From sequence record MN445185.1: a stretch of DNA of 64,000 nt; one strand, written 5' to 3'. The stretch's first letter is position 1; every line of letters begins with the position of its first letter. Source of the DNA: Escherichia phage vB_EcoM_EC001. The position numbers were made by a program, and so were the translations under genes. Positions 4,357-50,700 of the stretch are shown here, piece by piece. Under the pieces are notes generated by a model, which did not search any database, was not told the DNA's origin, and saw only the letters and a program-made list of their open reading frames with translations.

Positions 4357-4758
4357 ATGACTATCAAGAAGTTCTTACAAACAGTAGTAGTTCTGGCCGC
4401 ATGTGGTATCGCAGCAACTTATGCTTTCGATAAGCCAGACGTGACTGAATACGTATCAGCGGATTCCGATTACGGTATTGCACCGAATGAAAAACCGGAA
4501 CTGATGCGTGAGGTCGAACAGTTACAAATCTACAAACTGACGGATGGTAAGAACTGCACAGGGCTGGTTATCGCTGATAAGAAACTGAAAATGTATCAGC
4601 GGTTAATCGACATATCGTGCGATCAACCAAAAGTCACCTCGGTCAGTGTATCGCCGTTGGAATTGCCAGATCTGGTTGCTGTGAGTTTTTATCACAACGA
4701 TGTGCTCGTTGGTCGCATCACCCTCAATCGTGGAGATATCAAAAATGAAATGCAATAA
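4357..4758 (+). CDS. putative lipoprotein (133 aa)
   Basis: N-terminal signal peptide with lipobox-like VLAAC-G. Confidence 0.6.
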   Translation: MTIKKFLQTVVVLAACGIAATYAFDKPDVTEYVSADSDYGIAPNEKPELMREVEQLQIYKLTDGKNCTGLVIADKKLKMYQRLIDISCDQPKVTSVSVSPLELPDLVAVSFYHNDVLVGRITLNRGDIKNEMQ

Positions 4759-5236
4759 CGTTAATCGCCACTTGGCCAAAGTGGTGCTTTTTACTGTGCT
4801 GTTGATGGCACTTGTTGTTGGGCTACGGATTTCTAAGGCACACGCTGACGAATTCAGCGGGTTCCAGGGCAGTATTAACGGCAGCATTCCAGCATATACC
4901 CGCACCATCAATCTTAATGATAAGCCGTTCTGGTGCAATGCGCGTAAGCTGCTTAAGAAACAGTGTCGTGTAGTTGACATATCCTTCAACGGTCGTGTCG
5001 CTATCGTACACCGTCCGGGCGATAAAGATTGCCCAGGTGGTTGGTGGGGTGCAGTCGACCGTCACAACGGTGACGCGTTATGGCTTATCCCTAATCGTGA
5101 TGAACTATCAGTGGAGAAAATTTGCAGCAAAGATTTCAGGGCCGGTTTTGTACAGCGACCGGATACCAAAACTCTGGCCTCCATCGCTATGTACTACGGT
5201 ATGGAAACCATCAAAACAATCGACTATTCAGAATAA
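4745..5236 (+). CDS. putative secreted protein (163 aa)
   Basis: Start moved from track ORF 4700 to ATG 4745 (GGAGA SD); predicted signal peptide ending ...SKAHA; several Cys; overlaps upstream gene by 14 nt. Confidence 0.6.
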   Translation: MKCNNVNRHLAKVVLFTVLLMALVVGLRISKAHADEFSGFQGSINGSIPAYTRTINLNDKPFWCNARKLLKKQCRVVDISFNGRVAIVHRPGDKDCPGGWWGAVDRHNGDALWLIPNRDELSVEKICSKDFRAGFVQRPDTKTLASIAMYYGMETIKTIDYSE

Positions 5237-5258
5237 CTCAAAAAATTGAGGTGCTATT

Positions 5259-5669
5259 ATGAAACATTTTTTATTACCAGTTTTACTTGCTACTCTGGCC
5301 ATTAGCTTCTTCGCTCGCGCTGGAAGTATCGAGTTACCAAAAGTTGTTAACGATCACGAATACGGCGGACAGTTCTGGTGCCAGAACTCTGACGTACAAG
5401 GCGGTAGCTGCCAGATCGTTGCGATGTCCGATAACAACCGTTACCTGTTAGTGAAAACGATGGGCGGTGTCGCATGTGGCGACCCTGAATACGGGGTTAT
5501 TAACATGGCAACCGGGCAAGCCGAATCCATGAACTACAATGATAACCAAGCCTGTAGCGGTGAAGCCGTTGCTGAGTTTACACGCGACCCAGGCGACAAT
5601 GCCCTGACGGTTATCATGTACGACCCTACGATTAAGAAAAACGTAGGCATCAATAAACTCGACTTTTAA
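5259..5669 (+). CDS. putative secreted protein (136 aa)
   Basis: GAGGTG SD; N-terminal signal peptide (MKHFLLPVLLATLAISFFARA); Cys-containing mature part. Confidence 0.65.
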   Translation: MKHFLLPVLLATLAISFFARAGSIELPKVVNDHEYGGQFWCQNSDVQGGSCQIVAMSDNNRYLLVKTMGGVACGDPEYGVINMATGQAESMNYNDNQACSGEAVAEFTRDPGDNALTVIMYDPTIKKNVGINKLDF

Positions 5670-7473: not shown

Positions 7474-9984
7474 ATGCTCAAGGTCGAACGTATCATTTTG
7501 AAAGGATTTACCGGCATGGGGTTACATGAAATCGAAACGTTTGATTTCACCCTCAAGTCCACCGTTACCATCATCCTCGGCGGTAACGGCTGCGGTAAAA
7601 CAAGCCTCCTATCTGTTTTTCTCCCCATAGCTCCAGCAAAATCTGAATTCCGTGAAGGTGGTTCTTACACTAACTACGCGTTAGTCGGGGACGACCGTCT
7701 TAAGTTTGAAGTCCTGCGTCGTGGGTCTTCTCTGTCTTGTAGTATCTTCAACATCACTAAAGGTGTTTCCGTCGTAGACTCGGTAAACGCCAAAGTTTAC
7801 AACTCCATGGTGGAGCAATTAACCGGAATCACCAAAGAAATCAAAGAGTTAATTAATGGTGAGACCTTATTAACTGACGCCACTACCGAAGTTCGTCGTA
7901 AATGGTTTACGTTAATGTCAGAATCTGATCTGACGTACGTTGTTGGTTGTTATCGTCGTCTGCGTAAACTCGCTTCCAGTTTAAGTGGGGCCATTGAGCA
8001 CACCGGCCGTAAAATCGGTGAGGCAAAAATGCGCGTGGTGGACGATGAAGAAGATCGTGCACGTTTGGAAGTTCGTTTGAAAGAACTGGACGTTGAGCTT
8101 CAGGAACTAAACCGCACCATTGAAGCGAGACCCGGTTTAGATAACGCCGTTTCGGTTGATAGTATCCGGAAACGCATTGCTTCGTTGCAACCGGCTGTAA
8201 AACTCATTATGGAGCGTTATGGTGTTCTGCCTTCTGACGAACTGATTAACGAGTTTCAAAGTCGTGTAGTTGCCTGGCGTGAGCAAGCTGCCTCTGCTGA
8301 AACTGAATGCAACATGTACAATAAAGAGTTGTCACAGCTACTGGATGAGGAGTCGCGTCAAGCGTATCTGATGCGCAACCATACCGGTCTAAAACAAACA
8401 ATCGACAGCTTAAAACAGGAACTGGCAACGTTCCAACAGAACTGGATGTTCCCGGCTCTGTTTGAAGGTACCCGCATCGATGTGGATAGCATTCAGAACG
8501 CGTTAAACGATGCCTGTAACTGGAATTTACCGTTGTCCATGCATCTGGACCAGTTAAAGACAACAGAGCGCCTGGGAGCGTTAGAGAAGCGTTTACAGGG
8601 TATGGATTTAACCTCTGCGGGTCTATCTGAAAAGCTGCAACGTTGTGAGAATGTGCTACACGGTTTATACCACGACCGTCAACACTTCTTAGAAACTGCA
8701 GAAGTTGATTGTCCACAGTGTAACCACCGTTTCCGTCCTGGGATTCGTAAGTCGTTACCTGAAATTGAAAAGGCCATCAACGATAATGAAGGTTGGAAGA
8801 AGCAGCTGAAAGACGAAATGGATAGTCTTTTGCGTGACCGCAAAGAGATTGAAGAGGACGTCCGTAGCTTACGTACGATTCGCGAAATCGTCATGTCGTA
8901 TTCCAATCATCCCGTTGTCGGTTTGTTTTTCCGTAAACTGCAGGAGCTGGATATCTTCACCACGGCGCGGGATCGTTACGGTGCCATTGCACGTGCCTTT
9001 ACTGAAGAGTTAGATTCGGCCATGATGTATCTGCGTCAATCGGCGAAGCTTGCAACAGCGGAACGGGAATGGCAAGAGGCTGTTGCCGCAGTAGGTAACG
9101 TTGATGGTGCGCTGAGCCAGAAAATTGAACATATCCGTTCACAACTGGATGGGGCTAACCGTCGACTGATAGAATACCGCAGACAAGCCAATGAGCTGGA
9201 ACGCGAAACCACCCAACTGCAACAAACCAAAGAAGCAATCGAACGTTTCCAAAAGGGCTACGAACATCTGGTATCGGAAATGAACATCTCCGTTAACAAC
9301 GTCGTGGTTCGCGAGTTGTTAAACCGACGCGAAGCGAAGCTCGATGCGTATACTTCCGCTCGTGAACGGTTTCGTCAAATGGAAGGGGCTATTGCACGTT
9401 TAGCGGAACTGGAAAAAGAGCAAGCTGAATTGCTTAAAGAGCATCACCATGCCAGATTGATTATCAATGCCGTCTCACCCGAAAAAGGATTATTGCGTCG
9501 TTACTTTTATGCTGCGATTACCCGCATCATGGATTTAATGAATCGGTATATCGAAATGGTGTGGGCATATCCGATGCAGGTTATTCCATGCGATCTAACC
9601 GACGGGGATTTGGATTATACTTTCCCGGTACGATTAAAAGACCATGAAGAACTGGTGCCGGATGTGAAGAAAGGTTCGAAGGCACAGCGTATTATCTTTA
9701 ACATGATGTTTCGTTTAACGGCGTATAAAGCGCTTGGTTTACAAAACTATCCTTTGTTATTGGATGAACCCTCTGAAGGCATGGATGAGGAACACAAAAA
9801 TCGACTGGTCAACTTCATTAAATCGTTGGCGTTGTCGGGAGAGTTTTCTCAATTGCTGGTCGTTTCGCATGAAGCGGAAGTTCATTCTAAACTTAACGAA
9901 GCCACCTACTGTGTCGTGGAGCCAGAAGGTGTAACGCTTCCACCGGTTTATAACGAAGGGGTAATAATCAAATATGCATCATAA
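7474..9984 (+). CDS. Rad50/SbcC-like SMC-family ATPase (836 aa)
   Basis: N-terminal Walker A GGNGCGKTS; long predicted coiled-coil; central CPQC (zinc-hook-like); C-terminal Walker B/D-loop LLLDEPSEGMD and VVSHE. Assigned by motif architecture only. Confidence 0.75.
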   Translation: MLKVERIILKGFTGMGLHEIETFDFTLKSTVTIILGGNGCGKTSLLSVFLPIAPAKSEFREGGSYTNYALVGDDRLKFEVLRRGSSLSCSIFNITKGVSVVDSVNAKVYNSMVEQLTGITKEIKELINGETLLTDATTEVRRKWFTLMSESDLTYVVGCYRRLRKLASSLSGAIEHTGRKIGEAKMRVVDDEEDRARLEVRLKELDVELQELNRTIEARPGLDNAVSVDSIRKRIASLQPAVKLIMERYGVLPSDELINEFQSRVVAWREQAASAETECNMYNKELSQLLDEESRQAYLMRNHTGLKQTIDSLKQELATFQQNWMFPALFEGTRIDVDSIQNALNDACNWNLPLSMHLDQLKTTERLGALEKRLQGMDLTSAGLSEKLQRCENVLHGLYHDRQHFLETAEVDCPQCNHRFRPGIRKSLPEIEKAINDNEGWKKQLKDEMDSLLRDRKEIEEDVRSLRTIREIVMSYSNHPVVGLFFRKLQELDIFTTARDRYGAIARAFTEELDSAMMYLRQSAKLATAEREWQEAVAAVGNVDGALSQKIEHIRSQLDGANRRLIEYRRQANELERETTQLQQTKEAIERFQKGYEHLVSEMNISVNNVVVRELLNRREAKLDAYTSARERFRQMEGAIARLAELEKEQAELLKEHHHARLIINAVSPEKGLLRRYFYAAITRIMDLMNRYIEMVWAYPMQVIPCDLTDGDLDYTFPVRLKDHEELVPDVKKGSKAQRIIFNMMFRLTAYKALGLQNYPLLLDEPSEGMDEEHKNRLVNFIKSLALSGEFSQLLVVSHEAEVHSKLNEATYCVVEPEGVTLPPVYNEGVIIKYAS

Positions 9985-10165
9985 AGGTTGGCGCTTATGG
10001 GCTTGGTGGGGTTTTCAGTTCCTTCAGTTTGTTGTGATGGTACTGTACCTCTCCTTTTGTGCAACCGTAGTGGTTATCGCTGCGGTCGTTTATTTAGCTG
10101 CTGCTCTTAAAGAACGTCTGTTCGACACGCGTTGTGAGTGGCGAGATATAGGAGAACGGACATGA
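9974..10165 (+). CDS. small membrane protein (63 aa)
   Basis: Overlaps end of upstream gene; strongly hydrophobic core with charged C-terminus; weak SD. Confidence 0.4.
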   Translation: MHHKGWRLWAWWGFQFLQFVVMVLYLSFCATVVVIAAVVYLAAALKERLFDTRCEWRDIGERT

Positions 10166-10266
10166 TTGAAGGTATCGTATTAACCGGTATTGCACTGTGG
10201 TTGATTCGTGGTGCCTGGGGTTGGATTATCCGCACGAAAGGATGGGCATTCCATGGCAAGACGTAA
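10162..10266 (+). CDS. small membrane peptide (34 aa)
   Basis: ATGA overlap with upstream ORF; AGGAG 7 nt upstream; hydrophobic MIEGIVLTGIALWLIRGAWGWII…; below ORF-track size cutoff. Confidence 0.4.
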   Translation: MIEGIVLTGIALWLIRGAWGWIIRTKGWAFHGKT

Positions 10267-10444
10267 ACCTGGTCGTTTAAAGTTTTGGGCAGTTGTGGTA
10301 ATGCACACTGTGGTGCTACTCGGTATTTTCATGTCTCGCGCTACGCCTGCCTTTTGGGGCTTAGTTGTTTTGGTGTTCTTAGAAGGGGTTTACTTCGGTA
10401 ATCTGTGGAGCAAGCCCCCCGCGTTTAAGGGACCCGGCTTATGA
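10253..10444 (+). CDS. small membrane protein (63 aa)
   Basis: ATG inside track ORF 10208..10444; basic N-terminus then two hydrophobic stretches; overlaps previous peptide by 14 nt. Confidence 0.4.
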   Translation: MARRKPGRLKFWAVVVMHTVVLLGIFMSRATPAFWGLVVLVFLEGVYFGNLWSKPPAFKGPGL

Positions 10445-10572
10445 CAGTCGTGAATAGTGTCAACGCAGCCATGATTGCAACAGGTGCGTATGATGGTGCC
10501 ACCTGGACAGACCTTGGCATTACGATTATCATCTGTGCAATCGGAGCATTTCTGGCATCATGGTTATTTTAG
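10441..10572 (+). CDS. small membrane peptide (43 aa)
   Basis: ATGA overlap with upstream ORF; hydrophobic C-terminal half. Confidence 0.4.
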   Translation: MTVVNSVNAAMIATGAYDGATWTDLGITIIICAIGAFLASWLF

Positions 10573-10667
10573 TGAAGTGGGTTGGGTGTATCATCTGTAG
10601 CCTGGTACTAGGAGCAGGCGCATACGCCCTAGGCGCAATCCTTGCATTGACGCAAGGTTGGTTTTAA
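10572..10667 (+). CDS. possible small membrane peptide (31 aa, GTG start)
   Basis: GTG overlapping upstream stop (TAGTG); hydrophobic throughout; no SD, so weak. Confidence 0.25.
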   Translation: MKWVGCIICSLVLGAGAYALGAILALTQGWF

Positions 10668-11880: not shown

Positions 11881-12395
11881 CGGACATTCGTGTTGACATA
11901 TATGGGGAAATTCATACCACGGCCGATCGTAATCGTGTTGAATGGGCGATCATCGATAACCATCGGAAAAAACCATACGATTTTTTACTGTGTGAAGAAC
12001 TGGGGCCGTATGAATATCACACTGCAAAAGCGCAAGATAAGGCATTAAAGGAGAAGATGTACTCTATTGGGCCCATGGGGCTGGAGTTGGCTAAGAAACT
12101 CGGCATCCCTGCTATTGGGATCGATGACTGGAGCGATGCAACCTACGCTAAAGATATCAAGGATAAAAAGGGAAGGGCTGTAAACTTTAGCCGTTCTTTT
12201 TATATTCGTGAAGCTAAAATGGTTGAAAAAATTAAAAAGTATATGGCAAAAGGACGTTGTGCTGTTATGCTCGGCGACTCACACTTGCGCACCACGAAAA
12301 CCAAAGAGCTTGGTGGTGCGTCCCTTATCTGGGAAACATTTAAGGATAATCCTGAAGTGAAGTTTCACAGGAGCCCTAAACGCGAGATTGATTAA
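11877..12395 (+). CDS. hypothetical protein (172 aa)
   Basis: ATGA overlap with upstream gene; GAGGA SD. Confidence 0.6.
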   Translation: MTDIRVDIYGEIHTTADRNRVEWAIIDNHRKKPYDFLLCEELGPYEYHTAKAQDKALKEKMYSIGPMGLELAKKLGIPAIGIDDWSDATYAKDIKDKKGRAVNFSRSFYIREAKMVEKIKKYMAKGRCAVMLGDSHLRTTKTKELGGASLIWETFKDNPEVKFHRSPKREID

Positions 12396-12413
12396 ATCTA
12401 AAGGAGCATTAAA

Positions 12414-12836
12414 ATGGTTACCGCTATTCGCGAAACAAAATCACTATACGATCATTTATCAGAAGAAGAAACAGCCTTATTCTACGACCTGTTACCTGAA
12501 ACCAAAGCAAACGTTCAGTGGTGGTTACGTTTAGCGTTACGTGATAAAGTTGGGGAAACGCCGGTTAGTATTCTCGCGCACACGTTGGACATGACGCCCA
12601 TGATTGAAATCGCGATTACCCGCCCTAAATTCTGGCGGCCTGGTATGGTGCGTGAGGCGTATCTACTCCAACGCTTAGGTGTTGACCCGGAGAAGTGTTG
12701 GCGTAAGATGGACGACCATCGCTACCGTGAAGAAATTACGAATAGCCTCAACACTATGTTGGCAATGAAACGACTCGGTATCGAACACGAAGGTTTCGAG
12801 TCAGCGGTACAAACCTGGGTGAAAAGGAATAGCTAA
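12414..12836 (+). CDS. hypothetical protein (140 aa)
   Basis: AAAGGAG SD 8 nt upstream. Confidence 0.6.
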   Translation: MVTAIRETKSLYDHLSEEETALFYDLLPETKANVQWWLRLALRDKVGETPVSILAHTLDMTPMIEIAITRPKFWRPGMVREAYLLQRLGVDPEKCWRKMDDHRYREEITNSLNTMLAMKRLGIEHEGFESAVQTWVKRNS

Positions 12837-13085
12837 ATGCAAAAAACAATCATCGGAATAACAGTTAGTTCTTTCTGTGGCTTCCCTACCCCACAAACAG
12901 AACCCCAATATTTAGGCGCAGGTAAACCCGATCCGGAAGTCCGTAAGTTGCGCGAAGAAGCAAAAGCCAGAGTTCTTACTGAGCTGGAATCGTTGCTTCA
13001 GTCTCCGGTTATTTCACAATGGGGTATGGCAATAGATGTCACTAGAACTGATCGACGAGGCCGTTATCTCCCACGACCTGTTTAA
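12837..13085 (+). CDS. hypothetical protein (82 aa)
   Basis: ATG immediately after upstream stop; AAAGGA SD; 3' end overlaps the macro-domain gene by 50 nt in another frame. Confidence 0.45.
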   Translation: MQKTIIGITVSSFCGFPTPQTEPQYLGAGKPDPEVRKLREEAKARVLTELESLLQSPVISQWGMAIDVTRTDRRGRYLPRPV

Positions 13086-13536
13086 CGCGCCTGAGCGCTT
13101 CAAGGTCGTTACAGTTAACTGTGTTGGTGCAATGGGAAGGGGCATTGCTTTGGCGTGCCGAGAACGCTTCCCATCGCTTTATAATGACTATCGCCAGAAA
13201 TGTCGTAAAGAGCAAATCGTTATCGGTGAGGTCTATTGTTATCCTGAGGAAGGGGTAATACTCCTTCCTACTAAAACCCATTTTCGCTATAAATCGCAGA
13301 TTTACTATGTCACGTCCGGCATTGATGCGCTGGCGCGACTAGGGGAAGACTTAGAAGGAGGGATTGCGATACCGCCCCTAGGGATGGCTAACGGTTGGTT
13401 ACGTTACCATGAGCGATTGGAAATCTTTATACACTTACAGAAACGACTACAGCACACGGAGCAGACTTATCGATTCTATTTACCGGACACATTGCTAAGG
13501 GAAGCAGAGAAAATCATCCCAAAAAGTTTCAAATAG
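13036..13536 (+). CDS. macro-domain protein, TARG1/DarG-like (166 aa)
   Basis: Motifs in order: HDLF…VNCVGAMGRGIALACRERFP, QIYYVTSG, GIAIPPLGMANGW, resembling the TARG1/OARD1/DarG macro subfamily as I recall it. Confidence 0.6.
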   Translation: MSLELIDEAVISHDLFNAPERFKVVTVNCVGAMGRGIALACRERFPSLYNDYRQKCRKEQIVIGEVYCYPEEGVILLPTKTHFRYKSQIYYVTSGIDALARLGEDLEGGIAIPPLGMANGWLRYHERLEIFIHLQKRLQHTEQTYRFYLPDTLLREAEKIIPKSFK

Positions 13537-13551
13537 ATATTATCATCAGGG
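13520..13551 (+). promoter_or_regulatory. conserved promoter-like element (ATATTATC variant)
   Basis: CAAAAAGTTTCAAATAGATATTATCATCAGGG; shares A-tract + AGATAgATATTAyC pattern. Confidence 0.4.
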
Positions 13552-13635
13552 CACATTACAAAGGAGCACAATGCCGTCCGCGCCGTCTTCCCGGATTGGG
13601 AACGGAAAAGTATAAATCCGTTTGGAGATACATCC

Positions 13636-14358
13636 ATGTTTCGCACCATTTTATTTCTTCTGGTAGCAGTGACCACATTCAACAGCAACGCTTCTTACCA
13701 GTCCACCAGTAACAAACATCAAAAAGAATTTGTCCTTATCCAGGACCAGTTCAATGAGATTAAACCTCTCATCGTCTCTGCATCTCGAAAACAAGGCGTA
13801 CATGCCGGGATGCTTGCGACCACCATTTACCGCGAATCCCGTTTTAATAAAAACGTGGGTAAGAATAAATCGAGCAGTGCTAGTAGTGTTGTCCAAATGA
13901 CGACAGGTACTAAACGCTCCATGATACGTCTGTATGGGAAACAACTTAACATCCCAAAGAACGCAGACCTTAATAAACCGAAATATGCTGTACAGCTTGC
14001 TGCTGTTTACATGAAACACATCGAGGATCATCTGACAAAACAACTCAAACGCAAGCCGAGCACAGCCGAAATTGCATTAGGCTACCGCTTCGGTGAGAGC
14101 GCTGCTGTTGCGATGATTAAAAAGAAATCATCGGTCGGGAAACGCTGGATGGACAGCTACCGAAAAGACGCAGCATTCTACGGTGCGAAAATGACGCCAC
14201 CGAAAGCTGAAACACGTCAGCTTGCTTTTGCGAAGGAAGACCGCGACCAACGCGTCGCTGAGCTTCAGAAAATCTGGGATACGCTGTACACCAAAATATC
14301 ACCTGCGGCCGGTACACTACTGGCAAATAACACTATCATGAAAGGAGCATTGCTTTGA
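13636..14358 (+). CDS. secreted protein, possible lysozyme-like/lytic transglycosylase (240 aa)
   Basis: Signal peptide; loose SLT-like segment YRESRFNKNVG…SVVQMTTGT; preceded by a 14-codon upstream ORF. Confidence 0.55.
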   Translation: MFRTILFLLVAVTTFNSNASYQSTSNKHQKEFVLIQDQFNEIKPLIVSASRKQGVHAGMLATTIYRESRFNKNVGKNKSSSASSVVQMTTGTKRSMIRLYGKQLNIPKNADLNKPKYAVQLAAVYMKHIEDHLTKQLKRKPSTAEIALGYRFGESAAVAMIKKKSSVGKRWMDSYRKDAAFYGAKMTPPKAETRQLAFAKEDRDQRVAELQKIWDTLYTKISPAAGTLLANNTIMKGALL

Positions 14359-14948
14359 CACTCGTAACACGCCCCTGGTATCCAGGTCTTAAAACAGCCG
14401 CACAAATCACCGCCAAAGATGTCTACGAATTAATTCGCGCGGGTGCGGAACACGTTCAAACCAACCCGAACTATGTAGAGCGTCCTATCGGTGAAGTCGA
14501 TGGGGAAGCTGTCGAAGCACCGGTCTACGTTGAGTACGGCGAATGGTTCGCAGAGAACCACGGTTTCTACGACGCGTTAAACGCGGCGTTTGGTGATGAC
14601 GAAGACGAAGGTATCGAATTCGACTGGAACGTTAATCTGGCGCTGATGTGGATTTGTGGTTTACGTCCAGCAATTAACGAAACCGAAGCAGGTTTCGTGC
14701 TGACCTGGCGACAGTCGGCAGGTTACGATAAAGGTCTCGACTTCAAACAGGCGTATATGGATGTGTCGATTGCACTGCAGAAACTGTTCTTCGGCGACCG
14801 TGCTTTCTGCCAGCTCAGCTGGTTGACCATCCTGGAAAAACTGGCAACGTGTCACAAACTGTGGCGAGCAGAAGATGCCCCAGAACATCTGTTCGTGCTC
14901 GAATACGCAGTGGTACCAAACCAGCCGTTCTTTGAGGCCGAAGCGTAA
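14355..14948 (+). CDS. hypothetical protein (197 aa, TTG start)
   Basis: TTG start overlapping upstream stop (TTGA) with AAGGAG 7 nt upstream; no in-frame ATG for ~97 codons; terminator follows. Confidence 0.6.
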   Translation: MTLVTRPWYPGLKTAAQITAKDVYELIRAGAEHVQTNPNYVERPIGEVDGEAVEAPVYVEYGEWFAENHGFYDALNAAFGDDEDEGIEFDWNVNLALMWICGLRPAINETEAGFVLTWRQSAGYDKGLDFKQAYMDVSIALQKLFFGDRAFCQLSWLTILEKLATCHKLWRAEDAPEHLFVLEYAVVPNQPFFEAEA

Positions 14949-14953
14949 TTAAC

Positions 14954-14986
14954 GGTCAGACCTTCGGGTCTGACCACCTTTTATTT
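14954..14986 (+). terminator. intrinsic terminator
   Basis: GGTCAGACC-ttcg-GGTCTGACC then ACCTTTTATTT. Confidence 0.8.
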
Positions 14987-14999
14987 AATTCTTGGATGT

Positions 15000-15266
15000 G
15001 TGTTCGTGAAACGTTTAATAAATTTTCTCTACTGGATGGAGAAACGCTATAGCCACAACATTCCGATGATGTATAGTTTGTTATTCTCCACGGTAATGTT
15101 GGTAATCGGTGCGATAGTCGCGCATTTGATGGAACTCACCACTCCATGGGCGCAGCTTTTTCTCACCATCTGGATGTTGTTCTCAGGCTACCACATACGT
15201 GGTTTCATAACCCGATTCTTTCGCTGGCGTAGTACCTGGCATGTCTTTAATTCCGACCGTAACTAG
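15000..15266 (+). CDS. small membrane protein (88 aa; start uncertain)
   Basis: Hydrophobic ORF with two predicted TM segments; GTG 15000 or ATG 15036. Confidence 0.45.
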   Translation: MFVKRLINFLYWMEKRYSHNIPMMYSLLFSTVMLVIGAIVAHLMELTTPWAQLFLTIWMLFSGYHIRGFITRFFRWRSTWHVFNSDRN

Positions 15267-15326
15267 TTTTTTACAGCAGTAACTAATCATCTGAAAATAC
15301 CATTGACTTTTATAAGGACTATTAAC

Positions 15327-16460
15327 ATGAAATTTCCAATTTCCGTAATCGAAGATATGGCTCGTGTAGTACGTGACCGTGCGTATGTGCTTAGCTACGA
15401 AGGTATTCGTGCATATTCAGAAGCTCTGATTGCACAACACGTCACTGGCACCGGTGTTATCAACCCGGATCTTTACAATGCGCTGGTCGATAACAATGTG
15501 GAGGCTTATCTGCCGCTGCCGCACCTGCGTAATAAGTTGTGCCTTTCTTCTCAAACTCTTCAGTTTGATAACCTGCCACCACTGAAATATTCGCCAGATG
15601 ACCGTTGGGGAAGTATGCTGGGCATGGCTTTCCAAAATTGCCACGCGCCTTATAACTGGTCTATTCTCGTTGAAGGTGTTGATGGTGTCTGGTATGCCAT
15701 TGCACATTCTGACGAATTCTTCTTCGAGCCAGGTGAACTGATTAAACCCGTAAGTGCTCCACATGGTCGTGTTAAGGTTGGGCATTGTTACATTGAATTG
15801 ACTCATGTCCAGTGGACTATCGAAGACTGGCGTGCTGCCTCCGTTATCTTCGGTGACGGTAAACCACACTCAGTTACTTTCGAGCGTTGCGAAGCAGTGC
15901 ATGTTGAAGAGCCTGACAATGACGAAGTGGGAGATCGTTACGCGCCGCTGGAAGAGTGTCGTAACATCGCGAACATCGACTGGGTGAAAGTCTTTACGGC
16001 CAACCCCGGTTTCCGTGGTCAGACTATCAACCCCGGCGAAGTAACCTGGGAAGGTTTCGTACAACTCGCAGATAAACTCGGTTATGACGTGTGGGATTAC
16101 ACCTACAAACGTCCATACCCGAATGCGTCAGAAGATGAAGACCACGATGAAATCATTCTGGAAAACTTGGCTGATATCGAAAATGTGTTTATTGACGACG
16201 AAATCTTTGTTACCCTCGGTATCGAACGTCCAAAATCAACAGCTTATCCGGTATCGGTTGCCAGTGTGATTCAGGAACTGGGCAAAATGCAGGAGCAGAC
16301 TGTCGAAGTGAAAATCGACGAAGAGCAAATGCAGATTGTTGCGCAGGTACAGAAAACTCTGAACCTGGATAAACTGTACGCTGAAATCCGCAAGCTGCCG
16401 AAAAAGAAACGTACTGCTGCCACAATCAAAGCAATGGTCCGCGACATCATCGGCAAATAA
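15327..16460 (+). CDS. hypothetical protein (377 aa)
   Basis: Start moved from track ORF 15303 (TTG) to ATG 15327 (AAGGA SD); acidic C-terminal region; ends at a bidirectional terminator. Confidence 0.7.
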   Translation: MKFPISVIEDMARVVRDRAYVLSYEGIRAYSEALIAQHVTGTGVINPDLYNALVDNNVEAYLPLPHLRNKLCLSSQTLQFDNLPPLKYSPDDRWGSMLGMAFQNCHAPYNWSILVEGVDGVWYAIAHSDEFFFEPGELIKPVSAPHGRVKVGHCYIELTHVQWTIEDWRAASVIFGDGKPHSVTFERCEAVHVEEPDNDEVGDRYAPLEECRNIANIDWVKVFTANPGFRGQTINPGEVTWEGFVQLADKLGYDVWDYTYKRPYPNASEDEDHDEIILENLADIENVFIDDEIFVTLGIERPKSTAYPVSVASVIQELGKMQEQTVEVKIDEEQMQIVAQVQKTLNLDKLYAEIRKLPKKKRTAATIKAMVRDIIGK

Positions 16461-16479
16461 TGCGATAAAAAATAAAAGC

Positions 16480-16516
16480 CTACCTACTCCCTTGGGAGTA
16501 GGTAGTTCTTTTTTTC
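16480..16516. terminator. bidirectional intrinsic terminator between convergent genes
   Basis: 11-bp stem CTACCTACTCC/GGAGTAGGTAG, loop CTTG; T-run downstream and A-run (AAAAAATAAAAG) upstream. Confidence 0.8.
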
Positions 16517-18531: not shown

Positions 18532-18555
18532 AATTAAAAACTCTCCGAGGTGAGC

Positions 18556-19065
18556 ATGATAGCATCAGTTTTCAAACTGCTTCCATTCTTACAGATGCTG
18601 TGGGAAGCATTTAAACCGGGCGAGGGGGAGAAAGTAACACGAGCCGGGAAGATAGTGACACTAGTGATAGTGGCACTGGTCGCGTTCTCTGCATTTGTCT
18701 CATATGCCTATATTGTTCAATACCACACACTGGTTAGCGTCCAATCGCGTACTCAGTATCTGGAGATATCCTATAAGGAGCTAAAAGAGAAGTCCGATCA
18801 TGGCGAAGTGGAGAACAATAAGCTGTACGATCGTCTCTTCACATGCCTGGGTTCTCGATCGCCATATGATGGTACCAAATCTCCAACAGGGACAGGCACT
18901 GGGGCCGCGGTTCCGCCTGAAGAACTCAAGCCGGTAACACCACAGGCACCGTTAAATCCGTCTAGCCCGCCTGCCAAGAAACACCAGGCGGCTTCTCGCC
19001 CAGTGGGGTCGCAGGCGGCAAACGATTTCCGACAGGAGATTATCAAGACGCTTAATAATCCATGA
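18556..19065 (+). CDS. membrane-anchored protein, possible i-spanin-like (170 aa)
   Basis: Start moved to ATG 18556 (GAGGTG SD); one N-proximal TM helix, then charged/coiled segment and Pro-rich C-terminus. Confidence 0.55.
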   Translation: MIASVFKLLPFLQMLWEAFKPGEGEKVTRAGKIVTLVIVALVAFSAFVSYAYIVQYHTLVSVQSRTQYLEISYKELKEKSDHGEVENNKLYDRLFTCLGSRSPYDGTKSPTGTGTGAAVPPEELKPVTPQAPLNPSSPPAKKHQAASRPVGSQAANDFRQEIIKTLNNP

Positions 19066-19074
19066 GGAGCATAC

Positions 19075-19554
19075 ATGAAGTTATTTTTGGTGGCGATACT
19101 GGTGCTATTGTTGACAGGATGCCCTGGGGTCATCCGTCACGTAGACCCAGATTACTCCTCAACCGGAGATTGGCCTTTTCGTCCTTTAGAACACCCACCA
19201 GTATATAACGGTGGGAACAGTCCTGAGGCGAAAAAGCTGGCAGGGAAAATGTTTGTTGCGGATGTGAACGCTTATGCTTATTACGTTTATCTGTACGCTA
19301 AGTCAGTAAACAACTATGCAGAAGCTAAAGGGTGGCACACCCCGATGACCGCACCGCTTTGTGAAGAGTTTATTCGCCCCACTCTTCATGGTATACCCTC
19401 CGGGATATATCTCGACCCTGGTTCTCGTAGCCCTCAAGACATTAGTCGTGATTTGTCACGACAGATTAAGTCTCTCATTCGCAGCTATCGCGAAGACAGA
19501 GAGTCTTTTAATCGTGCCTACGAACGGCACAAAAGTAGTTGCCTTGTGCAATGA
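19075..19554 (+). CDS. putative lipoprotein, possible o-spanin-like (159 aa)
   Basis: Signal peptide with lipobox LLTGC; GAGGAG SD; terminator follows. Confidence 0.6.
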   Translation: MKLFLVAILVLLLTGCPGVIRHVDPDYSSTGDWPFRPLEHPPVYNGGNSPEAKKLAGKMFVADVNAYAYYVYLYAKSVNNYAEAKGWHTPMTAPLCEEFIRPTLHGIPSGIYLDPGSRSPQDISRDLSRQIKSLIRSYREDRESFNRAYERHKSSCLVQ

Positions 19555-19559
19555 AAACT

Positions 19560-19597
19560 CCCTCTTACCTTCGGGTAAGAGGGGATTTCCTTTTTTA
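19560..19597 (+). terminator. intrinsic terminator
   Basis: CCCTCTTACC-ttcg-GGTAAGAGGG then GATTTCCTTTTTTAC. Confidence 0.8.
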
Positions 19598-44747: not shown

Positions 44748-47700
44748 TTAGCTTGCTTTCCGACTTACGTTTAACGACGGTGTCGGTTGGGTTATTTCCT
44801 GCCTGCGTGCAGCTGAGCCCGGAGGAGCCACATTTGCCGCTTGCTGGATACTACCACCCCGTGTGTCGTTTGCCGCTCTCGGATTTGATTTCAAAATATC
44901 ACGAATCTCTTTCAAGTAATCGCGAGACTGAATCAGTACCTTGAGCTGCTGAACATCTATCGGGTCACCATTCAGCGTTGGCGTCGATGCTGTAGCATCA
45001 GAAGTTGGGGCGGCAACTGGACGAGCTGCTGCGTTAACCTGCGCTTCCGCGCCTGCTTTCACTTTAGCAACATCCGTTGCAGACAATCCTTCTGCTGCAG
45101 CTTGCGACGCTACGGTTTCGGCTGTTGTTGAGGCATCGGATGTTCCGGAACCACCTGTAGTTGGTGTAGGTGCTGCTGGTCCTACATTACCTGCGGCGGT
45201 AGCCATTGCATCTTGTGCCGCCATGGCCCCTTTCTGCGTCAATGCGTCATCACGACGATTAGCATTATCTGCCGGCAGGTTATCTGCTGGCGACAGACTC
45301 GGATCATTAGCGGCCGGTGCACCCATTGCTGCTGCCGGGTTGGTTGGTGAATTAGGCGACAAGCCTGCAACCATATCCTTCGTCTTACTCGGATCGGCAG
45401 CGACTTCGTTGGCAGAAATTGCGCCCATACGGCGGTTCAGTTCCTGAATAACCCCATCCACGCTACGTATACGACCGTTGCTGTAGAAGACGTTGGCATT
45501 CCCTCTCAATATTGCGGATGTAATCCCAGGAGCACTCGATGCCGCCATATTCGGATTACGCTTCCATGCTTCCAGGAATTTCTTACCGCCGCCCGCACCC
45601 AGGAAGTGATACAGATAAGCCACGGCTGGAGGTGGTGCTTTACCACCCAGGTCACGCTGTGCTTGTTGGATGTTGTCACGAATGAACTGTACACCCAATA
45701 TAGCATTCGCCCACGGGTCCATCTGGTTAACACGCGGAATACCGAACTTCCGCGAATACCCCTTCATCATCCCGTCCCACGTACCGTCAATAAACTGGAA
45801 CAACCCAGACGCCGAAGCATACGGGTTTTTAGCGGTGTAGTTAAATCCGGACTCCGCCTTAGCCATTGCTAACGCCACTGCAGGTGGCACGCCCATCATG
45901 TTCGCCGCATCGGTAATCAATGCTTTGATATTCGGAACGTTCAACGCACCCTTTCTACCCAACATTTCTATCGGGTATTTTTCAGCCAGTGACTTATAAT
46001 CACCGTCTTTCACATCACTCAGGTTAATCGAAGACGAACCAGTGGTCATTGCAGCGTAGTTCCGCACACCACCAACCGCATCGACGACTTGACCCAAGTT
46101 ACCCGGCACACCACCACTCGTACCCGATGGAATGTAGCCTGAGGCGCGAGCACCGTCAGATGACAAAGAATCTCCCGAACTGATGTTCGAGTCTTCTTCA
46201 TCTTCATCGGTGACTTCCAGAGAACTGCGGTTCTTGTTACGATCCTTCCAGCGCGCACGCTTGCCATTATTTCTAATGGCTTTAATCATGTTACGCACGG
46301 CAAGGTCAGCTTCTTTTGACAACAGCTTCAGCGTTTCCAGCTCGGCTTTAATAGACGATGGGTTCGTGTTAGCCTCACCCCCTAATGGGTTGATATTCAC
46401 TTCCCACACCGACTGTCTTATACCACCTTTCAAGCTGTAGGCTGTTGACATCATCAAGCTGATTTCGTACAGGTAACCACCAGTCAGCTTCAAGTTCAGC
46501 GGATCGGCTGTTGGCAGGTAACGCTTCACCCCAACCAAATACGTCATGAATACCGGTAAGAAACGGTCAAAGAACCACCGCTTCAAACGATCTTCTTTCG
46601 GTGTACCGATAGCGTCTGGAACCATCGAGGCGATTGCTTTCTTCCAATCTCCTTTGTAGCTTGCGGTTTTCACGTCAATGTCTTTGATGACGTTCTTCTC
46701 GAATACCGTGATCAACGTGCGGGTGGCGTTATCGATGGTGGTAAAGCCGTAAGTCTTCCAACGCACCGATTCCATCGCATTCATGTCTTTCTGGTCGAGC
46801 ACCGCATTCCAGTCTACCTGAATCTGAACCTGCTCTGTTCCGTCTTCCCAACCCTCTACCTTCGCCAGATTTTTATTACGTTCGTTATCCAACTGTCCAA
46901 GTTTGTTGATAGCTTCATCAACGCCCGCGGACTTAATCCCCTCCACGGCCGGTGCCATTCCGTACTTACGTGCTTTCTTATCGTCCATTCTGGACTTGAT
47001 TGCACGCTCGACTTCATTCTGCACTTCCATAACCTCTTCACCGCTCAAGAACTCCTTCGGTGTAAAGGTTACAACGTCCCAAGCTTTCGAGAAGAAACCT
47101 TGGTTGACTTTGCGTGGGTCTGTTAACGAAGAGAACGCTTTTGCATCCTTAGTCATCTTCATTTTGTTGAAGAGAGTCAGCATGTCCTCTTTCGATACTT
47201 TCTTCGCATCGCCGACGTCAGCCAACTGGATACTGTTCGGCATTGACTTCAGTGCCGTAATCCAGCGGAGATAAATCGGAATAAAGCGCTGAAGCATAAA
47301 CGCTTGGAAGGCCAACATCTCGCCTTTTTCCTCAACGTTAATACCGAACCCTTCAGCTAGCTTCTGAACGTCTTTTCCACTTAGCCCGCGGAGACTGGCT
47401 TGGCCATCTTCCGCGTAAGACACATACTCACGCAATGCGTCTTCTAAGTAACGCGCTTTCGCCCCGTCGTCCGACGACCACTTATCGTAATCACGGAAAC
47501 CGTACTGAGCTAAACGCATCTTATCCAGGTACTGGGTATAGGTAGTCGTTGCAATCCTGTACGCGGCGTAACCAGCCGCAGCGATCGCACCACCGATAAG
47601 AATTGCCGGCCAACCCACCGCAGTCACGACGGCAGATGCCGCAGTTGCCACAGCGGACACCGCGGGTGCCGCCAAACGGGTTACTGCGAACTTACCGACA

Positions 47701-50700
47701 TTCCACGCAGCCTTACCTAAAAGACCTACTGGTTTTAACACGCCCCATTTCGTGATAGAACCGAGTATATTACCCACAGTTCCCAAGATACTGACGATGG
47801 GACCGATGATAGGTAAGCTTTTCACCATATCCCACAGACCGCCAGATTTCCCTTTGGAGCCCTGCGCTTTCTCTTTCTTCTCCTTACGTTTCTCACGCCA
47901 ACGTTTGAAGAAGTTAAGGTAATCGCGTTTTTCATCACCTTCAGGCGGCTTGTTACGTTTACCGAACTTCGCAAACATGGTGCGAATAATGCCATCGTCA
48001 CCACCTGCACGGGATACTGATTCGCGCATGGTGTTAAACCATGACATCTCTTGCAAGCCAATCATTCGGTCCAAGCGTTCGAATAACCTTGCGCCTGCAG
48101 ACTTGGCGGCATTCTTCCCTTTGTTAATAACCCTCCCTGCTGCATCACGGGCGGTCTCAAGGTCTTCCTTCGCATCGCCGTAGACTTTACGGCCAGAAAG
48201 GCCACCTTTCGCGTTCAAATGGCTGCGATAAAACTCAGCAACATCATCGTCGCGTCCAGCCAACCGACGTTCAACTTCGTAACGTGTAGCAATGTCGTGT
48301 CGTGCTCCACGATATCCATCGAGCATATCCCCAGCCCGGCCTCGGAAACCACTGAACCAACCACGCAGGCGGTCACGTCCACGACCAAAGAACGCTTTTG
48401 TTCTTGACCAACGTCCACCAAAACGTTCAGACAGTGACGCTTTCGCGCGATCATACGCCCCGCGTACTGCACGACCGATCGTACTACCGCCACCCCCGAC
48501 GCCCTTCTCCATTTCCTCTGTCCAACTTTCGTCTTCCGGATCTCCCGGTAAACGTTGGTTCAACAGTTTATAGATACGGATAAGGATGTGGTTGGTTTTC
48601 TTGCCGGTTGATGAGAAGAGACTGAAACCACCGCCCCCACCATCTTTACGGCCTTTCCACCAACGCGTCAGTGGGTTGTCGGTAATCATGTCTTTCAGAC
48701 GATCGACACCACGTTTCGCAAAACCGAGCACTTTACCCGGTAAGCTCGTTACACGGTTGAACGCTTTCTGGAGACGTGTCTTTTCTTCGCCTTCCGGAAT
48801 CTCGTTCAGCCAGTCCTTAATCTTACCAACGATGCTGCCCGCTTTCGGTGACAGGAAATCCAGGAACCTTTTCGGTAGCTTAGCCACCTTATTAAAGCCT
48901 AAGCCAATCTTACTGGCCAGACCTTGGGTCAGTGCTTGGATTTTCCCGCCTTTATAGTAGCGGAGTTTACCCGCAGCGGCTAAGTCAGCGGCTGCTAATA
49001 TCAGATTACCTGCGGAGTCAACAATATCACTCCCCAGCTTGATGTCGTCCAGCGTTTTCAGCTGAACCATTTTACCATCAATGACCTGATAGTATTCTCC
49101 AGCTTCCAGACGTGCACCTTGCAGAACAACATTACCGTGGTCATCGTAAACGTCACGGATACCCAGTAGTCCTTTACCGAAAGAGCTTACCGCTTCAAAG
49201 CCACCACGGACACTACCGCTGATAAGGCCACGCATCCGGGTTAAGAAACCAGGACCTTCTCCGCCACCCATTCCTGCGACTTTACCGCGTGCCCAGCCAC
49301 CGAACTGGTTCAGTTTATTCCAGGCACCCTTAACACCACGTTTCGCAAAGCCACCGATTCCTGCTGCGGTGTCGAACAACACACCACCCCAACGACGAAT
49401 AAGCCCATCTTCACCGATGATAATACGACGGCGTTTACCGCCACCGCTACCACCACCAGGACGAGGTGGTCCCATCTCTTCGTCACCAGAACCAGCACCC
49501 CCTGCTAACGAAGCCAGGAGAACCCCTTCTTCGTCCATACTTCTGACGTGTTCCAGAATTTTCTGGAGGGTGTCACTGTTGTTATTACCCCGAATCGCTT
49601 CGATGATGCCGTCAAAGTTATTCCGTGGCGCTTCTTCGCCGCGGTTACGTTGACTCAACAATTCAACAAAGTTAGTCGAGGTTTCACCGTAGAGAACTGC
49701 GGCTAACTGCCGAGGCGACATTCCGCGGCCTTTACCACCGCCACGTAAAGCCGGCGGCAACGACGTGTCATCGGCACCACCATTTACCCCTTGGTTCATT
49801 CGGCGCAGATAGTCGCCTAACGCCGAACCGTTTTGCAGCTTACGTTGAATCTCCTGCTCACGAGTCAACGCACGACCGCTGCGTGTCTTACCCATTGCCA
49901 AGTCATTAAACAAGGTATAGGGATCGGACAGGTCTTTATCCACGCCGAAAGTGTCACTCTTCGCGTCGTAGTTAAAGATACCCGCATCGCGCAATGCTCG
50001 CTCACCGTAAATATTCACCGCCTCGTCGATAATTGCCTGACGTTGGGTGATAGATGACTGCACTGTGGAGATTTTGCGGGCCAGCTCGTTACTTAATTCG
50101 TTGCTACCGCCGACCAAGCTATCAGAATGCCCCTGTAACGCTTCCTTAATGCGTTCTGCGGCGTTTCCTGGCATATACCGATGAAGATGCATCGGGTCTT
50201 TCAGAATCGCTTCTACGTCGAATGCGCGGCCCTGCGAGGCTCGCGACTCGATATAGTCGGCGAGATGCTGTCGATCCTTCTGCGAGAGCGTTTTGCCGCG
50301 GTCAACAAAATCCACAGTGCTGTTAATGGAATTTTGGAGACGCAGGCGTTGTTCATCGTTTGCAACCGCCTTGCGTACGCGGTTACCGACCACTTTGCGG
50401 TCTACGAAACCACGGCTGGTGATGTCATATTCCAGGTCGGCATGTTCGCCATAGCCACGACGGACAGATTTGTTAATCTCTGCCAGCCAGGCAGGAATAA
50501 CTTCAACCAGGCTAAGATATGCTTTACGGTCAAACTTCGCCGAACGGCTTAACGTTTCGCCATTACGCTCGTCAAGGAAGGCTTTCTCGCGGTTTAGCGG
50601 TTGGACAATACCGAGTTCATTCAATACCCGGAACAAATCCGCCAACGGCCCTTGCGTTTCGCCTGCGATAGCTGAGTTCGAGATAGAGGAAAGATTACCA

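Follow-up and report, generated by a model that had tools for sequence, protein, structure and literature searches.

We analysed a 64,000-nucleotide stretch of Escherichia phage vB_EcoM_EC001 (sequence record MN445185.1), hereafter the window. Its coding sequence at 13636-14358 on the plus strand specifies a protein of 240 residues that is very probably an exported lytic transglycosylase of the SLT type. The start codon is an ATG, 8 nt downstream of a GGAG Shine-Dalgarno motif (13624-13627, +) read from the sequence, and the product begins MFRTILFLLVAVTTFNSNASYQ. The gene is the orthologue of SPN3US_0198 of phage SPN3US (YP_009153492.1, AEP84031.1), and its product is called gp198 here. The original prediction, made from the letters and a list of open reading frames (ORFs), had placed a lysozyme-like candidate at these positions; the ORF is present exactly as drawn, including the quoted motifs RESRFN (residues 66-71) and SVVQMTTGT (residues 84-92). 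A minus-strand ORF annotated as SPN3US_0197 (132 nt; ~13556-13678 of the window, -) runs across the gene's start and its ribosome-binding site, and is probably a spurious call.

The DNA around the gene (12000-16500) is 98.5% identical to that of Salmonella phage JN03 and 96-97.5% identical to that of SPN3US, SEGD1, the SPFM phages, Proteus phage 7 and others, all of them ~240-kb jumbo phages of the genus Seoulvirus. At the protein level the orthologues share 96.7-98.8% identity, JN03 being the closest at 98.8%, and an identical protein is already held by public databases (P0001). SPN3US, JN03, SEGD1, SPFM and Proteus phage 7 carry the same gene with the same neighbours as the window, and nothing substantial differs between them. 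The product is a 'putative endolysin' in GenBank (SPN3US, JN03), a 'transglycosylase' in RefSeq and a 'lytic transglycosylase' elsewhere; gene 198 is also entered as 'putative endolysin', beside the phiKZ endolysin, in a supplementary table of Thomas et al. 2016. None of these annotations mentions a signal peptide, and our literature search found no description of one in this lysin family. Hence public annotation already covers the gene, its SLT nature and a candidate endolysin role, and a signal peptide combined with an SLT domain is an endolysin design of a described kind. Because dozens of near-identical genomes already annotate gene 198, the gene itself adds little. In SPFM5, 7, 8, 9, 10, 12, 14, 15 and 20 (LR535903, LR535904, LR535908, LR535912, LR535917 and other records; proteins P0011-P0015), the homologue of gp198 is broken into blocks of ~20 residues (60 nt) whose order is reversed. 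The 'scrambled' hypothetical proteins that result are a database artefact, as if FASTA lines had been deposited last line first.

The catalytic domain (SLT/GH23, lysozyme-like) spans residues 46-167 (13771-14136, +), as delimited by PF01464, by alignment with phiKZ gp144 and by AlphaFold2/Foldseek. The Pfam profile search that the original prediction had proposed as a check gave a PF01464 match of 27.2 bits over these residues (E=3e-6), above the gathering cut-off of 21.3, and precomputed PF01464 matches are found on gp198 homologues too. PHROG 4067 'transglycosylase' matches the gp198 orthologue with E=1.4e-57. By sequence, the best match in the PDB is phiKZ gp144 (3bkh, 9xps; E=5.5e-7), covered over its residues 92-210, with the segment R-E67-S-R-F of gp198 aligned to I-E115-S-A-F. 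The putative catalytic residue Glu67, encoded by GAA at 13834-13836 (+), thus aligns with Glu115 of gp144. The AlphaFold2 model of the gp198 orthologue, computed from a 50-sequence family alignment, has a mean predicted local distance difference test score (pLDDT) of 85.7, rising above 95 across residues 30-185. Superposition against the PDB by Foldseek returned 3bkh as the top fold match (E=1.4e-5, probability 1.0), followed, all at probability 1.0, by E. coli MltE and MltC, Pseudomonas Slt and MltF, g-type lysozymes and the phi6 lysin; the best viral predicted structures were 'putative endolysins' and lytic transglycosylases of jumbo phages. The original prediction had made itself depend on a lysozyme-like fold, and the match of the model to 3bkh supplies one. 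Beyond the domain, a C-terminal tail (residues 186-240; 14191-14355, +) carries the conserved motifs QLAFAK and ELQKIW and one predicted helix (203-218), at low pLDDT (41-66).

Among the 50 homologues, Glu67 and Thr92 are kept in all and Gln87 in 43, while Ser/Thr68 and Ala82 are nearly invariant. The motif L148-G149-Y150-x-F152-G153 is also present in the gp198 orthologue. Taken together, the profile, the catalytic Glu motif and the lysozyme-like fold assign gp198 to family 1 of SLT/GH23. A catalytically dead decoy or binding protein, an alternative that the original prediction had raised, deserves next to no credence. Nothing specific speaks for it apart from two atypical motif positions in the closest subfamily, namely Ser84 in place of the usual Gly (G-L-x-Q) and Ala147 in place of the Tyr aligned to gp144 Tyr197; against it stand the invariant catalytic Glu, the intact E-S, x-x-Q-x-T and Y-x-F-G motifs and a confidently predicted active-site fold. 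The original prediction was also too pessimistic in calling the motif match weak, given the above-threshold Pfam match, the PHROG match and gp144 as top hit; it had rested its call mainly on the signal peptide, whereas the profile and fold evidence is the stronger of the two.

The closest characterised relative, phiKZ gp144 (3bkh/3bkv), has a homologous SLT domain with 31% identity over 117 residues (pairwise E=7.5e-12) and the catalytic Glu aligned. It is a cytoplasmic, holin-dependent enzyme with an N-terminal domain of the PG_binding_1 type, and its gene adjoins those of a class III holin, the regulator gp143 and spanins. In gp198, a predicted cleavable signal peptide replaces this N-terminal peptidoglycan-binding domain, and the 55-residue C-terminal tail is added. 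MltE/EmtA, MltC and Slt70 of E. coli share the fold, the catalytic E-S motif and action in the periplasm. However, MltE and MltC are outer-membrane lipoproteins, whereas gp198 is phage-encoded, has no lipobox and shows only ~14-21% identity over structural alignments. To place the family more widely, 1.84 billion cluster representatives were searched exhaustively with HMMER, which yielded 245 relatives (E up to 0.001). Of the 155 analysed, 57 have at most 320 residues and 34 exceed 1300 residues; these giants have the SLT domain near the C-terminus, as in phiKZ gp181 and SPN3US gp239. In a phage collection, homologues occur in 173 records; all those in the 60 rows inspected are large phage genomes (197-312 kb) of Salmonella, Erwinia, Serratia, Klebsiella, Aeromonas, Pseudomonas and other hosts, usually labelled 'putative endolysin' or 'transglycosylase'.

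The N-terminus of gp198 is, by prediction, a classical cleavable Sec signal peptide comprising residues 1-19, MFRTILFLLVAVTTFNSNA (13636-13692, +). A positive n-region (MFR, with Arg3) precedes a hydrophobic core of 12 residues (4-15), of which 67% are L, I, V, F or M and 8% are G or A. The cleavage region S17-N18-A19, followed by S20, has small residues at -3 and -1, and the predicted signal peptidase I site lies between Ala19 and Ser20, so that the mature protein would begin SYQ. Nine homologues with 50-81% identity all have Ala19 and Ser20, and only S, A, V or T occurs at position -3, whereas position -2 and the core residues vary. Fixed -3 and -1 positions beside a drifting core form the pattern expected of selection for cleavage by signal peptidase I. 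A matching cleavage motif is found in 10 jumbo-phage loci, and a rule-based classifier assigned a Sec-type N-terminus to 43 of 56 small homologue clusters (150-320 residues). The signal peptide claimed by the original prediction is therefore borne out, by rules, in its n-region, core and -3/-1 residues, all of them conserved in homologues. The predicted mature protein has a mass of 24.8 kDa, an isoelectric point (pI) of 10.1 and no cysteines, which leaves no means for a lipoprotein or a disulfide switch. The lipoprotein reading was rejected on this ground.

Export through Sec without a holin is also a property of the signal-arrest-release (SAR) endolysins, such as P1 Lyz, R21 of phage 21 and phiKMV gp45, whose release is timed by a pinholin. 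If gp198 belonged to them, an uncleaved tether would hold the enzyme inactive at the inner membrane until depolarization. Its N-terminal hydrophobic segment and predicted Sec dependence would suit such a mode of action, and the SAR type is the usual Sec-dependent one among phages infecting Gram-negative bacteria. SAR domains are, however, uncleaved, Gly/Ala-rich anchors of ~20 residues, with 45-55% G+A in P1 Lyz and R21, against a core of 12 residues with 8% G+A in gp198, and a small-x-Ala/Ser cleavage motif is conserved after the core in all close homologues. Moreover, a protein without cysteines cannot be caged by a disulfide as P1 Lyz is. We consider a SAR endolysin very unlikely, and rejected it on core length, core composition and the conserved cleavage motif. 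By the same rules, gp198 has the N-terminus of a signal-peptide endolysin. The founding member of that group, Lys44 of Oenococcus phage fOg44, is exported ahead of lysis by means of a cleavable Sec signal peptide and is activated when the membrane potential collapses; its Gram-positive host and different catalytic family limit the likeness to mechanism. The endolysin of Campylobacter Fletchervirus F352 is closer in design. With 188 residues, it combines a signal peptide with an SLT domain (PF01464), and is reported to be Sec-dependent and holin-activated (PMC7692668). Its architecture and predicted mechanism are those of gp198, its host is likewise Gram-negative and the lysis genes are scattered; the two are likened by design, not by sequence. 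F352 and its relatives are ~130-kb myoviruses in contrast to the 240-kb jumbo phages, and the F352 enzyme was tested by experiment, whereas gp198 is known from its sequence.

The window encodes a second SLT domain, in the giant virion protein of 2373 residues (coding sequence 44748-51869, -) that is orthologous to SPN3US gp239, the tape measure (PMC5105663, PMC5694885). This domain lies at residues 1983-2071 (45657-45923, -) and is only 26% identical to gp198 over 137 residues, so that gp198 and the giant are distinct paralogues. The original prediction had called its candidate separate from the giant SLT protein, and the stand-alone frame of 240 residues confirms this. Virion-associated hydrolases of this kind (phiKZ gp181, SPN3US gp239) are domains inside large virion proteins. 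By contrast, gp198 stands alone and is missing from the virion mass-spectrometry table of Thomas 2016, in which gp193, gp202 and gp203 of SPN3US are present; '198' was not found in the supplements of Ali 2017 either. The absence from the virion table supports a non-structural gp198. Could gp198 nevertheless be a virion-associated peptidoglycan hydrolase used at entry? The products of the neighbouring genes 193, 202 and 203 are virion proteins, and chain S of PDB 9xps, 'Endolysin gp144', is modelled within 'The neck structure of the Phage Phikz'. On the other side stand the absence from the table, the prospect that a Sec-exported protein would quit the cytoplasm where virions are assembled, and the SLT domain that the virion already has in gp239, which takes that role. 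We regard a task at entry as most improbable. Chain S of 9xps implies in itself that phiKZ gp144 is also virion-associated; the signal-peptide-bearing SPN3US gp198 is missing from the virion table.

Gene order around gp198 is kept as follows: an SMC-domain gene, an acetyltransferase gene, a macro-domain gene, the gene for the signal peptide and SLT domain, a coupled downstream gene, a variable stretch, a DUF7194 gene (-), a virion protein gene (-), and genes for a membrane protein of ~165 residues, a lipoprotein of ~156 residues and a nuclease. This order is common to Seoulvirus, Erskinevirus (Asesino, phiEaH2), Machinavirus (pSal-SNUABM-04, Caitlin, pEa_SNUABM_8) and Wellingtonvirus, and is found on two metagenome contigs with lysins only 37-43% identical. 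PHROGs gave only matches of 'unknown function' on the neighbours of gp198. The coupled gene, gp199 (14355-14948, +), encodes an acidic protein of 197 residues (pI 4.4; PHROG 8114) with neither a transmembrane domain nor a signal peptide; it starts at a TTG that shares nucleotides with the stop codon of the lysin gene (TTGA). Homologues of gp199 adjoin or overlap the lysin gene directly downstream in nine of ten loci, and in five of six loci measured they are acidic (pI 4.2-4.9) and have neither a transmembrane domain nor a signal peptide. We regard gp199 as a possible cytoplasmic partner of the lysin. The mature lysin, a 30-Gly linker and gp199 were modelled as one fusion with AlphaFold2, from an alignment of 23 unpaired SLT homologues and 8 paired sequences. 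Both halves folded, separately, and the predicted template-modelling score of 0.45, judged without inter-domain confidence values, speaks neither for nor against a complex. A strong intrinsic terminator follows gp199 at 14954-14985 (+; its end also placed at 14975), with a GC-rich stem of 9 bp, a TTCG loop and a T-run; hence the lysin and gp199 genes together end one transcription unit. Upstream, the intergenic region 13537-13640 has no significant RNA structure (z=0.78). Matches to sigma-70-like promoters are at background (17 versus 13.5 +/- 3.1), as expected since the phage carries its own RNA polymerases.

Downstream of this unit lie membrane proteins that may take part in lysis. A frame for 88 residues, gp200 (15000-15266, +), has a transmembrane domain at ~23-44, a weaker hydrophobic segment at ~48-70 and a basic C-terminal tail, with a DUF4231 match in Pfam below threshold (E=4.9e-4). 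We consider gp200 a weak candidate for a holin or pinholin. Some 4 kb downstream of the lysin gene, gp204 (18550-19065, +) is a membrane protein of 171 residues, in which a transmembrane domain (33-55) is followed by a short helical stretch and a Pro/Ser-rich tail; it is kept in Asesino, pSal-SNUABM-04, Wellington and a distant locus (L005). Next to it, gp205 (19075-19554, +) is a lipoprotein of 159 residues in which MKLFLVAILVLLLTG is directly followed by Cys, at the lipobox LLTG/C, and which has a Pro-rich N-terminal region. The lipobox is kept in four other loci, and a terminator follows the gene at 19559-19584. The pair is unannotated and shows no sequence similarity to phiKZ gp141/141.1. 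Judging by their predicted features, which fit a separated i-spanin/o-spanin pair kept in four genera, gp204 is a candidate i-spanin, or alternatively a holin, and gp205 a candidate o-spanin. An NCBIfam search gave no match for the lysin, gp199, gp200, gp204 or gp205.

Outside the window, the genome of SPN3US encodes another muralytic enzyme, YP_009153450.1 (NC_027402.1, 135425-136042; L018:35425-36042), which is gp156 by accession arithmetic. Its 205 residues match Glyco_hydro_108 (2e-18), PG_binding_3 (4e-19), PHROG 315 'endolysin' (2e-39) and the Salmonella TtsA-like muramidase Sen1395 (PDB 6v3z; 7e-42), and it is devoid of a signal peptide. It is labelled 'endolysin' in RefSeq, and 'hypothetical' or 'peptidoglycan domain protein' in GenBank. 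Genes of this type also occur in 145-150-kb Cronobacter and Pectobacterium phages. No holin of at least 35 residues was found at the gp156 locus; nearby are a lipoprotein gene (record 137623-138114, -) and, read by eye, a hydrophobic mini-ORF of 30 residues in the downstream spacer.

This second enzyme bears on what gp198 does. We consider it fairly probable that the job of gp198 is lysis, as an endolysin of the signal-peptide type. Among characterised proteins its closest relative is gp144, the proven endolysin of the defined phiKZ lysis cassette gp141, gp141.1, gp142, gp143 and gp144 (PMC12894885); gp198 is outside the virion table; and candidate spanins lie 4 kb off. The original prediction of a periplasm-targeted muralytic enzyme and candidate endolysin is thus supported by the SLT fold, the invariant Glu and the conserved predicted Sec signal peptide, and agrees with the virion table and the public label, the role staying that of a candidate. 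The chief alternative is that gp156 is the true, holin-dependent endolysin and gp198 an accessory remodeller of periplasmic peptidoglycan, which would loosen the sacculus, for example for swelling around the phage nucleus or for priming fast lysis. Homologues of gp156 are the annotated endolysins of many ordinary phages, as their sole endolysin, and gp156 is missing from the SPN3US virion table just as gp198 is. In addition, bacteria tolerate their own periplasmic SLT enzymes (Slt70, MltE), which are the closest folds after gp144, and enlargement of the host cell in jumbo-phage infection has been reported for phage Goslar (PMC13282480). However, the proven role of gp144 argues for lysis, endolysins with a signal peptide and an SLT domain that cause lysis are documented (PMC7692668), and nothing ties the gp198 gene to cell swelling. 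Furthermore, among the best 60 of 97 GH108 matches, the GH108 gene covers fewer jumbo-phage lineages than the gene for the signal peptide and SLT domain, which is also found in Wellington and in Serratia, Klebsiella and Aeromonas phages. We consider the remodeller unlikely, although less so than the other alternatives weighed here.

In the lysis reading that we prefer, a putative sequence of events can be outlined. SecYEG would export the pre-protein, and signal peptidase I would cut it between Ala19 and Ser20. The soluble, basic enzyme of 24.8 kDa would accumulate in the periplasm late in infection, where it would be kept in check until the membrane potential is lost through a holin or pinholin, as in F352 and fOg44. 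Degradation of the wall would then free the gp204/gp205 pair to disrupt the outer membrane as spanins. In this process, gp198 would probably work alongside, or redundantly with, the cytoplasmic GH108 muramidase gp156.

Several observations weigh against lysis as the task of an exported gp198. A phiKZ-type cassette is not present at the locus: BLASTP and phmmer --max found no match between any neighbour of gp198 and gp141-143 of KTN4, of the phiKZ species (all E ~0.1 or worse). Only gp144 has a homologue here, and the pair of a transmembrane protein and a lipoprotein is non-homologous and 4 kb off. No convincing holin was seen among the neighbouring ORFs of the window adjoining the lysin gene, and gp200 is not conserved at its position, being absent there in L005. 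The model would also need some restraint on a soluble periplasmic lysin, lest it lyse the cell prematurely. A gene for GH108 plus PG_binding_3 co-occurs with that for the signal peptide and SLT domain in Seoulvirus, Erskinevirus and Machinavirus, and gp156, judged by sequence, is a rival non-virion muramidase with a standard endolysin architecture and the RefSeq name 'endolysin'. The signal peptide was called by rules and conservation only, and the closest subfamily carries the two atypical motif residues Ser84 and Ala147. Finally, our literature search found no paper naming SPN3US together with gp198 and none testing gp198.

A more elaborate scheme, to which we attach little probability, is that enterobacterial jumbo phages have rewired a gp144-type enzyme into a secreted lysin timed in the cytoplasm by gp199, with a holin-gated GH108 enzyme as a second arm. 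The very basic pre-lysin (pI 10) would be bound by the acidic gp199 (pI 4.4), which would govern when it arrives at the Sec machinery. If true, these phages would have two lysins and a lysis timer of a new kind. As a further possibility, secreted gp198 may serve mainly in wall remodelling so that the infected cell can swell; SPN3US is reported to form a nucleus-like compartment.

Phages of the SPN3US type thus appear to have three separate wall-cutting activities, in the giant virion protein, the exported SLT enzyme and the cytoplasmic GH108 muramidase, and a lysis system unlike the phiKZ cassette, which was worked out in 2026. GenBank and RefSeq disagree on whether gp198 or gp156 is 'the endolysin', and the amber-mutant genetic system of SPN3US makes a direct test of this identity possible. 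Being small, very basic and cysteine-free, mature gp198 could also be a candidate enzybiotic.

Some further features of the window were noted. The macro-domain (Appr-1-p processing) gene at 13036-13536 (+) lies directly 5' of the lysin gene in every genus examined; its product scores just under the cut-off of Pfam Macro (21.7 versus 22.0) and matches PHROG 335 with E=1e-29. Between the convergent genes gp201 (+) and gp202 (DUF7194, -), a bidirectional terminator with a perfect stem of 11 bp is located at 16480-16505. Five tiny ORFs of 63, 42, 78, 43 and 35 residues follow one another at 9974-10667 (+), each with a strongly hydrophobic segment, and two of them match PHROGs of unknown function. 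At 4357-5669 (+), three adjacent ORFs of 133, 178 and 136 residues have N-termini resembling signal peptides, lipoproteins or transmembrane domains, the first beginning with MTIKKFLQTVVVLAA, directly followed by Cys. The ORFs of 178 and 136 residues are paralogous (PHROGs 17072 and 8968 cross-match), and all three probably encode exported or envelope proteins.

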